44,959 bases of DNA from Escherichia coli (lineage in GTDB: Bacteria > Pseudomonadota > Gammaproteobacteria > Enterobacterales > Enterobacteriaceae), in NCBI RefSeq assembly GCF_003334255.1, contig NZ_QOWU01000045.1. One strand, written 5' to 3'. How positions within the stretch are numbered: the first letter of the stretch is position 1; each line of letters starts with the position of its first letter. Both the position numbers and the translations under genes were made by a program. Shown here one piece after another: positions 44,007 to 44,517 of this stretch. The notes under the pieces are model-generated. The model was not told the DNA's origin and searched no databases. It saw nothing but the letters and a program-made list of their open reading frames with translations.

Positions 44007-44237
44007 ATACGGGATTTTTAAAAATCACTAAAGAACGCCCAAGAGCATGTGTTTTCTTTAGTAGAATCAAACTCTTGAATTTCCATGTCATATGAAAATC
44101 GGCAAAGTTCATATGTAACAAAGTGTCCCAACCATGCCCCAAAATGCCCCACAACAGACATTTTTGTCCCATGCATGCCCCAAAAAAATCACTTCCCCTC
44201 ACCTTGACACTGTTTATACATACAGTTAAAAATAATA

Positions 44238-44253
44238 CTGTACATAACCACAG
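44238..44253. promoter_or_regulatory. LexA (SOS) box upstream of the dinI-like gene
   Basis: CTGTACATAACCACAG fits CTGT-N8-ACAG, 16 bp upstream of the ATG and just upstream of the AGGAGG Shine-Dalgarno (44258-44263); TTGACA at 44204-44209. Confidence 0.6.
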
Positions 44254-44268
44254 TTACAGGAGGGTGTT

Positions 44269-44517
44269 ATGCGTGTTGAGATCTATATCGCTAAAGAAAA
44301 AATCAGCAAAATGCCAAAAGGTTCTGTTCCTGCCCTGCAGCAAGAGATGCTGCGACGTGTCAGTAAACGTTATGATGATGTAGATGTGATCGTTAAATCT
44401 GCCAGCAATGATGGACTCACCATTTTAAGAGCTGTAGATAAAGAATCCGCGCACGAATTTGTACAGGAAACACTGCAGGAAGCCTGGGAAACCGCTGACG
44501 ACTGGTTTATTCAATAA
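44269..44517 (+). CDS. DinI-family SOS-response protein (82 aa), prophage-type
   Basis: Track ORF 82 aa [82 protein letters not shown]; same length and the conserved C-terminal motif (ETWESADDWF in DinI) as chromosomal DinI; strong SD and LexA box upstream. Confidence 0.8.

Follow-up and report, generated by a model that had tools for sequence, protein, structure and literature searches.

Known dinI systems and the locus in the window

DinI of Escherichia coli K-12 (gene b1061; structures 1GHH and 7YWA), the DinI-family proteins of the Gifsy prophages, Tum of phage 186 and the dinI genes that lie beside the attachment (att) site of lambda-like phages are the described systems closest to the gene analysed here, a dinI-like open reading frame (ORF) in a 44,959-nucleotide stretch of E. 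coli DNA (RefSeq assembly GCF_003334255.1, contig NZ_QOWU01000045.1), hereafter the window. The last 950 bases of the window (44010-44959) are 100% identical to positions 7249-8198 of AF151674.1, phage P-EibC of E. coli ECOR-9, which is a lambda-like prophage inserted in yecE; what precedes them, from yobF to aspS, yecD and codons 1-32 of yecE, is chromosomal DNA of E. coli. On this identity, ECOR-9 or a strain very near to it is the probable source of the window. We consider it highly probable that the gene forms an SOS-controlled ‘moron’ cassette at the tail-fibre/cargo end of P-EibC, which makes a DinI-like protein that binds the RecA groove and brakes cleavage of the UmuD/CI type. The same end of the prophage is found in strains G6/7 and G1/2, with 99.7% DNA identity over 1,060 bases, and the gene is annotated there as WP_016238065.1. 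In G6/7 the prophage is complete-looking and lambda-like, with tail, head, lysis, Q, replication and repressor genes, xis and int; the repressor has helix-turn-helix (HTH) and Peptidase_S24 domains (8.7e-19), a combination that identifies it as being of the lambda CI type, which cleaves itself in a RecA-dependent manner.

The att-adjacent dinI genes (BP-4795 ORF85 ‘dinI’, PPyecE_EH1910, Stx2_95, YYZ-2008, cdtI orf30 and PhiR5_1) encode proteins of the same 82-residue family, 63-91% identical to the one in the window, and have the same order of promoter elements (-35, box 1, -10, box 2) and the same place before the attachment site, next to cargo that varies. There is no substantive difference between this class and the present locus, the cargo here being eaaC/eibC and not nleC, cdt or nleA. 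K-12 DinI has the same fold, length class and C-terminal W-E-x-A-D-D-W-F helix, and its promoter likewise has a LexA box; however, K-12 dinI has a single box, lies between pyrC and bssS and is followed immediately by a terminator, whereas the gene here has two boxes, is in a prophage and has a long 3′ untranslated region (UTR). The dinI genes of Gifsy-1, -2 and -3 are, as here, prophage-borne members of the DinI family under a LexA box, but their product is 77 residues long and has 40% identity to the 82-residue protein. In Gifsy-1 and in Klebsiella ST13phi12.4, dinI has a single LexA box, lies in the nin region and is followed by co-oriented small genes; the nin region of Gifsy comes after the replication genes, whereas the cassette here is beside att. 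Tum of phage 186 is a more remote relative. Its promoter, p95, is LexA-repressed, and its C-terminal half aligns with the 82-residue protein (30% identity over 73 residues, E = 1e-9); yet Tum is 146 residues long, with an N-terminal antirepressor half that the 82-residue protein does not have, it belongs to a P2-like and not a lambda-like phage, and its C-terminus (...LQEVWEDESWR) is without the ADDWF motif that forms the RecA-binding pocket of DinI. Experiments on LexA-controlled prophage homologues of dinI date from 2011 (Lemire et al. 2011, PMC3121763), and papers and databases already cover the gene, its family, its SOS control in prophages and a possible connection with induction; the assignment is correct, ordinary and known.

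The 82-residue protein is a DinI-family member

The coding sequence is placed as follows.

44269-44517, + strand: DinI-like coding sequence, ATG start, 82 amino acids, stop codon included (from the ORF list and RefSeq)

RefSeq has WP_016238065.1, a ‘DinI-like family protein’, at the same coordinates. An earlier note on this DNA, made from the letters alone (the sequence-only reading), had assigned the ORF to the DinI family by its C-terminal motif (AWETADDWF, against TWESADDWF in DinI); K-12 DinI ends in ETWESADDWFVSE. A profile hidden Markov model search with the 82-residue protein is in agreement with this assignment and gives a significant match to Pfam DinI (PF06183; i-Evalue 4.8e-17) that takes in model positions 1-63 of 63 and residues 16-80 of the protein. 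In PHROG, family 189, ‘RecA filament binding protein DinI’, is matched at 8.9e-27, with the protein covering positions 71-149 of the 151 in the profile, and a phmmer search of the PDB returns DinI (1GHH/7YWA; 3.4e-11, aligned residues 1-81) as the sole significant relatives of solved structure.

An AlphaFold2 model made from 13 homologues (predicted local distance difference test, pLDDT, 78.5) has a beta-alpha-beta-beta-alpha layout, with predicted strands at residues 2-8, 39-45 and 50-55, helices at 19-31 and 59-74, and extra short helices at 9-14 and 76-79. A three-stranded sheet against two helices, the C-terminal one acidic, is the arrangement of the DinI fold, and the protein is predicted to adopt it. 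With this model, the top Foldseek matches are RecA-bound DinI (7YWA_A) and free DinI (1GHH), with a template-modelling (TM) score of 0.79 and a probability of 1.00; no further chain is found at E <= 0.001, the next match having E = 0.017.

In the cryo-electron microscopy structure of RecA with DinI, F203 of RecA enters a DinI pocket composed of L13, L21, W71, W77 and F78, whereas an acidic patch of E24, E69 and D76 faces K232, R243 and K245 of RecA (PMC9926225). Identity is retained at seven of these eight DinI residues (DinI/here: L21/L23, E24/E26, E69/E71, W71/W73, D76/D78, W77/W79 and F78/F80), and the eighth is a conservative replacement, L13 of DinI corresponding to M15. The 82-residue protein is a member of the DinI family that keeps the DinI fold and the RecA-contact residues, and judged from the residues aligned it most likely binds the groove of the RecA filament. 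A PADLOC search for the protein as an anti-phage defence protein gave no match.

A near-consensus promoter overlapped by two LexA operators

Upstream of the ATG, the following elements are found.

44204-44209, + strand: -35 hexamer TTGACA, from the promoter scan; left edge of the conserved cassette and invariant in nine cassettes
44210-44225, no strand assigned: LexA box 1, CTGTTTATACATACAG, directly after the -35 and filling the -35/-10 spacer
44228-44233, + strand: -10 hexamer AAAAAT, from the promoter scan, with an 18-nt spacer
44238-44253, no strand assigned: LexA box 2, CTGTACATAACCACAG, over the predicted transcription start
44258-44263, + strand: Shine-Dalgarno sequence AGGAGG, 5 nt before the ATG, read from the sequence

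The promoter scan gives TTGACA and AAAAAT as a pair with 10/12 matches, and TAAAAA at 44227-44232 is an alternative -10 hexamer with a 17-nt spacer; we read the promoter as a strong one of the sigma-70 type. The centres of the two boxes are 28 bp apart, so a LexA box of the form CTG-N10-CAG with an AT-rich centre overlaps the promoter not once but twice, as is characteristic of the SOS regulon. The TTGACA -35-like hexamer and the strong AGGAGG ribosome-binding site named in the sequence-only reading are both present. Box 2, the LexA box that it described, is likewise there; however, the reading reported this box alone and overlooked box 1, which is the better of the two.

Within the window, CTGT-N8-ACAG is observed 3 times against 0.38 expected, a count that 0 of 100 shuffles reached; two copies precede the dinI-like ORF, and the third is upstream of yebG, by RefSeq naming a DNA damage-inducible protein. 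A strict search for the 20-mer LexA consensus with at most 3 mismatches returned no match in the window. Because real boxes, those of yebG and ruvA included, carry 4-6 mismatches, LexA boxes were instead given a graded score, each 20-mer being counted for its agreement with the palindromic 20-nt consensus TACTGTATATATATACAGTA. Among the 44,940 20-mers of the window, only four have at least 14/20 matches: box 1 (16/20, the best in the window), box 2 (15/20), the yebG box AACTGTGATTTTATACAGTA at 23281-23300 (15/20) and the ruvA box TGCTGGATAGATATCCAGCG at 38542-38561 (14/20), the site upstream of ruvA being of the CTGG-N8-CCAG form. On the same count, the single LexA box of K-12 dinI scores 15/20. 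The sites of yebG, ruvA and dinI are ones that we take, as established knowledge, to be bona fide SOS boxes, and with those of yebG and ruvA among the four best matches the window carries its own positive controls, alongside which both boxes of the dinI-like gene rank. LexA control of the gene, as proposed in the sequence-only reading, is strongly supported in silico by two promoter-overlapping operators that are conserved among cassettes with saturated synonymous sites, and the presence of both on a near-consensus promoter suggests that basal expression is tightly repressed. In the literature searched, we found no description of the conserved two-operator architecture of the att-adjacent dinI class.

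Operators and protein are conserved among att-adjacent cassettes

The 70 nt before the ATG were compared among nine att-adjacent cassettes, anchored at the ATG. TTGACA, box 1, the -10 block, box 2 and the ribosome-binding site are kept across the nine with a single break, which is in box 1 of BP-4795 (CAG to CAA), leaving box 1 intact in 8/9; the CTG and CAG triplets of box 2 are intact in 9/9. The TAAAAAT block at the -10 is the same in all nine except for its first base, which is C in PhiR5_1, and the Shine-Dalgarno sequence of the other cassettes reads AGGAGGG or AGAGGGA. The operators are retained despite a coding dS of ~0.8-1.2 for the more distant pairs. For the window and phage cdtI, coding dS is ~1.2, yet the ~39 nt that begin at the -35 and extend into box 2 as far as its first half hold only 1 difference, which indicates that the operators are conserved beyond neutral expectation.

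The same comparison bears on the view that the gene hitch-hikes or is a remnant in decay, without a function in either phage or host. Individual copies can decay, as illustrated by the dinI copy of BP-4795 (182-496), in which W73R replaces a RecA-contact tryptophan and box 1 is broken, and which, from these changes, may be decaying or losing function; moreover, the deletion of Gifsy dinI genes is without an induction phenotype. Against this, Nei-Gojobori (NG86) dN/dS between the gene in the window and six E. coli-phage homologues is 0.15-0.25 at dS values of 0.26-1.17, which implies purifying selection on the protein, and which the remnant view has to reconcile with homologues diverged to a dS of up to ~1.1. 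In the same pairs, conservation extends to the promoter, both operators and the ribosome-binding site; the ORF is intact and full-length with its contact residues, and 14% of complete E. coli genomes have the gene, often more than once. We therefore regard a functionless remnant as quite unlikely.

Boundaries, spread and cargo of the cassette

Homology to phages that integrate elsewhere starts at positions 193-195 of the query (window ~44204, the -35) and ends at 503-508 (window 44512-44517, the stop codon); phages in which homology is limited to the cassette include BP-4795, PhiR5_1, PhiR12 and many Stx1a/Stx2a phages (Stx, Shiga toxin). Other yecE prophages in E. coli genomes have the att side and the gene in common, and there too homology stops at the stop codon. 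The sequence-only reading had taken the gene to be phage-borne, 260 bp inside the inserted element and a self-contained unit. Its region is identical to P-EibC and forms one end of a lambda-like prophage that occupies yecE, its ATG is 261 bp past the yecE attachment core, and homology between phages begins at the -35 and ends at the stop codon, all in accord with what was claimed. Observation and interpretation were essentially right in that reading, the second operator being a useful correction.

The dinI-like gene is the last before the attachment site in 9/9 phages inspected, and the cargo next to it comprises NleA4795 and a putative avirulence protein (BP-4795), nleC (PPyecE and Stx2_95), cdtABC (phage cdtI), an adhesin (PhiR5_1) and, in the others, hypothetical genes; in P-EibC the cargo is eaaC/eib. 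By tblastn, dinI homologues are found in 133 phage records, and megablast with the cassette alone finds it in 762 of 5,426 complete E. coli genomes (14%), in up to 5 places per genome and notably in Shiga-toxin strains; the annotated features under these matches are named ‘DinI-like family protein’. In the Stx2c/Stx1a phage group, an 86-residue homologue (Stx2c_JNE110649, 682-942) that is unannotated in the group’s own records has a 4-residue duplication, VDAL, in the region of the first helix. In BP-4795, the genes after dinI (652-3492; the putative avirulence protein and the type III effector NleA4795) are co-oriented with it and not convergent, an orientation that makes read-through from the LexA promoter into effector genes conceivable in that phage.

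Downstream of the stop codon, one feature is relevant to the extent of the transcript.

44615-44634, + strand: terminator-like hairpin GGGGAGU-CGGAAA-ACUCCCC, then CUUUCUG; the only terminator-like match on the + strand, and part of the minimum-free-energy fold

This hairpin is the probable 3′ end of the dinI transcript, which would then have a 3′ UTR of ~100-120 nt. With its own promoter, a terminator-like hairpin (though the terminator assignment is weak) and mosaic boundaries, the cassette (44204-44517) has the attributes of a ‘moron’. TTCTGG followed by a GAG-rich hairpin ending in AAACTCCC and a T-run is a module with two copies, spaced by 137 bp, between dinI and eaaC (44606-44640 and 44746-44780); the first copy is a clean hairpin, the second has an unconvincing fold (z = 0.08), and the duplicated modules may be remnants of cassette terminators.

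What lies downstream bears on a different arrangement, in which the gene would be the first of a LexA-controlled antirepressor module of the Gifsy dinI-gfoA-irsA or 186 Tum type, with an antirepressor that inactivates the prophage repressor as the real output. Such a role is documented for the LexA-controlled dinI loci of Gifsy and for Tum (PMC3121763; 186 annotation): Gifsy dinI heads an operon whose second gene, gfoA/gftA, encodes an antirepressor that causes induction (PMC3121763), and the match to PHROG 189 at positions 71-149 of 151 only implies that this family takes in longer, Tum-like proteins. However, tblastn of 44000-44959 with Gifsy-1 GfoA, the Klebsiella ST13 downstream protein, an IrsA-like protein and the YeP1 upstream protein gave no match at E <= 100, and all three + frames downstream of dinI are broken by stops, on which grounds an antirepressor operon was rejected. 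A Tum-like fusion was likewise rejected, as there is no N-terminal extension and the alignment is only to Tum residues 70-141, in the C-terminal half of a protein that lacks the ADDWF end. In addition, the terminator-like hairpin at 44615 intervenes, the next gene, eaaC, is convergent, and Gifsy-type genes are in the nin region with one LexA box, whereas those of the att-adjacent class are beside att with two. Finally, the repressors of Gifsy are not cleaved (PMC3121763), whereas the sister prophage in G6/7 has an S24 repressor of the self-cleaving type, for which no antirepressor is needed. With no antirepressor downstream or fused, we consider an antirepressor module to be very improbable.

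The length of the 3′ UTR raises a further possibility, namely that the dinI mRNA yields a 3′ small RNA (sRNA) resembling Klebsiella DinR, a product of dinI mRNA processing that represses ftsZ. A LexA-controlled dinI mRNA giving an Hfq-dependent 3′ sRNA is a clear precedent (PMC10907235), and ~100-120 nt with a GC-rich hairpin at the end is unusually long, the terminator of K-12 dinI being right after the stop codon. Homology between cassettes nevertheless ends at the stop codon, which leaves the 3′ UTR outside the conserved unit, and 44518-44645 folds no better than shuffles (z = -1.46). For 43900-44959 at E <= 1, the one Rfam match is an artefact, a miRNA family scoring 23.8 bits against its threshold of 93 on the terminator hairpin of eaaC, and the pairing region of DinR is described as specific to Klebsiella (PMC10907235). 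A DinR-like sRNA from this locus thus seems most unlikely.

Proposed action on RecA-dependent cleavage

In an undamaged lysogen, LexA dimers on both operators would silence the dinI-like gene. DNA damage would give RecA filaments and self-cleavage of LexA, on which the gene would be expressed, as expected from its sequence and from precedents in Gifsy and Klebsiella: LexA control and induction by mitomycin C have been shown experimentally for the prophage dinI homologues of Gifsy phages (PMC3121763) and for Klebsiella dinI (PMC10907235). The 82-residue protein would then occupy the groove of the RecA filament, stabilising the filament and competing with self-cleaving substrates; in solved structures, the groove surface bound by DinI is also that used by LexA, UmuD and lambda CI (PMC9926225). 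By enlarging the cellular pool of DinI, the phage copy would slow cleavage of the slowly cleaved substrates, which are UmuD and the prophage’s own S24-domain repressor of the CI type. The expected outcome is a higher threshold for induction and limited SOS mutagenesis, the direction and size of the effect being the weakest step.

The same binding to the groove may also act with the opposite sign, such that the phage DinI stabilises RecA filaments, prolongs the SOS signal and so promotes repressor cleavage and induction. At near-stoichiometric amounts, DinI gives more and longer RecA filaments and is said to assist filament formation (PMC9926225). Nevertheless, a groove occupied by DinI should be one for which CI has to compete, and the authors of work on Stx2a phages expect dinI expression to limit induction (PMC8456039). 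We hold promotion of induction to be an unlikely but serious possibility, and prefer a DinI-like brake on cleavage.

Several points weigh against this reading of the locus as a whole. The score for the NCBIfam DinI equivalog model NF007893 is 63.3 bits, below the 111-bit cut-off, and identity to K-12 DinI is 40%, at which the same biochemistry is not guaranteed; taken together, the two point to a DinI-like paralogue and not an orthologue of chromosomal DinI. E. coli DinI itself stabilises filaments, yet in excess inhibits co-protease activity; sequence does not give the net direction here. The hairpin at 44615-44634 has a poor T-run, which makes the terminator assignment weak, and the repressor, xis and int were read from the near-identical sister prophage of G6/7, the window’s own immunity region being outside the window. 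Non-polar deletions of dinI in Gifsy-1 and in Gifsy-3 did not significantly affect levels or rates of induction (PMC3121763), and as a consequence no prophage DinI has an established, measurable part in induction. In the literature searched, we found no experiments on this att-adjacent cassette; functional studies of the att-adjacent lambda-like class as a whole were represented there only by annotations and speculation (e.g. PMC8456039, PMC6456863), and the one functional test of a prophage dinI that was found is that of the Gifsy phages (PMC3121763).

The orientation of int offers a way in which the gene could also be expressed without LexA cleavage. Read from the prophage of G6/7, xis, int, the attachment site and dinI share one orientation, and in the circular genome dinI would be ~230 bp downstream of the int stop codon, across the phage attachment site attP (10 bp, the 21-bp core and ~196 bp to the -35). 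The sib element of lambda lies at the corresponding position downstream of int. While the prophage is integrated, dinI is separated from the early operon and depends only on its doubly LexA-locked promoter; after excision alone, read-through from early leftward/int transcription could give LexA-independent DinI, tying the occupancy of RecA filaments to phage commitment, and up to 5 copies sharing a pool would set a common threshold. We regard this elaboration as having little chance of being correct. Co-orientation of int and dinI as a general rule was rejected: it holds in the yecE prophage of G6/7, but int is divergent from dinI in phage cdtI.

Attachment site, neighbouring genes and cargo

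Outside the cassette, the prophage end has the following features.

~43988-44008, no strand assigned: yecE attachment-site core CCGTCACTTTAACTGCGTGAT, the host/prophage junction
44124-44194, no strand assigned: repeated motifs TGTCCCAnnCATGCCCCAAAA and ATGCCCCA (direct-repeat families D1 and D2), past the att core and before the dinI -35
44837-44869, - strand: stem-loop terminating eaaC (AF151674 stem_loop), perfect 10-bp arms, fold z = -3.0; part of the cargo, outside the cassette
44884-44959, - strand: 3′ end of eaaC (SPATE-type autotransporter, that is, serine protease autotransporter of Enterobacteriaceae; S6 peptidase), running off the window end and convergent with dinI

The attachment core matches the 21-bp ‘duplication due to insertion’ of PPyecE_EH1910, CCGTCACTTTAACTGCATGAC, at 19/21 positions; in strain G6/7 it recurs at the opposite end of this prophage, adjoining the stop codon of int. 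The yecE 5′ fragment annotated by RefSeq ends at 44006. At the far end of the prophage in G6/7 (6739-8804 of the extracted stretch), the annotated start of yecE (DUF72; 8034) is inside the last 19 bases of int (end 8052). The interrupted yecE thus appears to have its 5′ end and start codon replaced by ones from the phage, the native 5′ fragment so displaced being 43911-44006 of the window.

Between the core and the cassette, TGTCCCAnnCATGCCCCAAAA occurs twice, 41 bp apart, and ATGCCCCA three times; the dinI -35 is ~10 bp past the last D2 repeat (end 44194) and ~20 bp past the last ATGCCCCA core. The latter motif is also upstream of dinI in BP-4795, PPyecE, Stx2_95, YYZ-2008 and PhiR5_1, which include phages that integrate elsewhere, and, in G6/7, adjoins the stop codon of int at the other end of the prophage (positions 7990-8010 of the extracted stretch). 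These repeats are candidate integrase arm-type binding sites, a probable assignment, and lie outside the dinI cassette. On the cargo side, the P-EibC record continues past eaaC with orf-60C, orf-156C and the immunoglobulin-binding gene eibC; AF151674 annotates eaaC and its stem-loop, whereas the dinI-like ORF is unannotated there.

Possible implications for Shiga-toxin phages and their hosts

The relevance of the att-adjacent class to the induction of Stx phages may lie in its conserved double LexA operator, where chromosomal and Gifsy dinI have one box. As the class is common, with up to 5 copies in a genome, the pooled dose of DinI-like protein could shift both RecA-dependent repressor cleavage and SOS mutagenesis.

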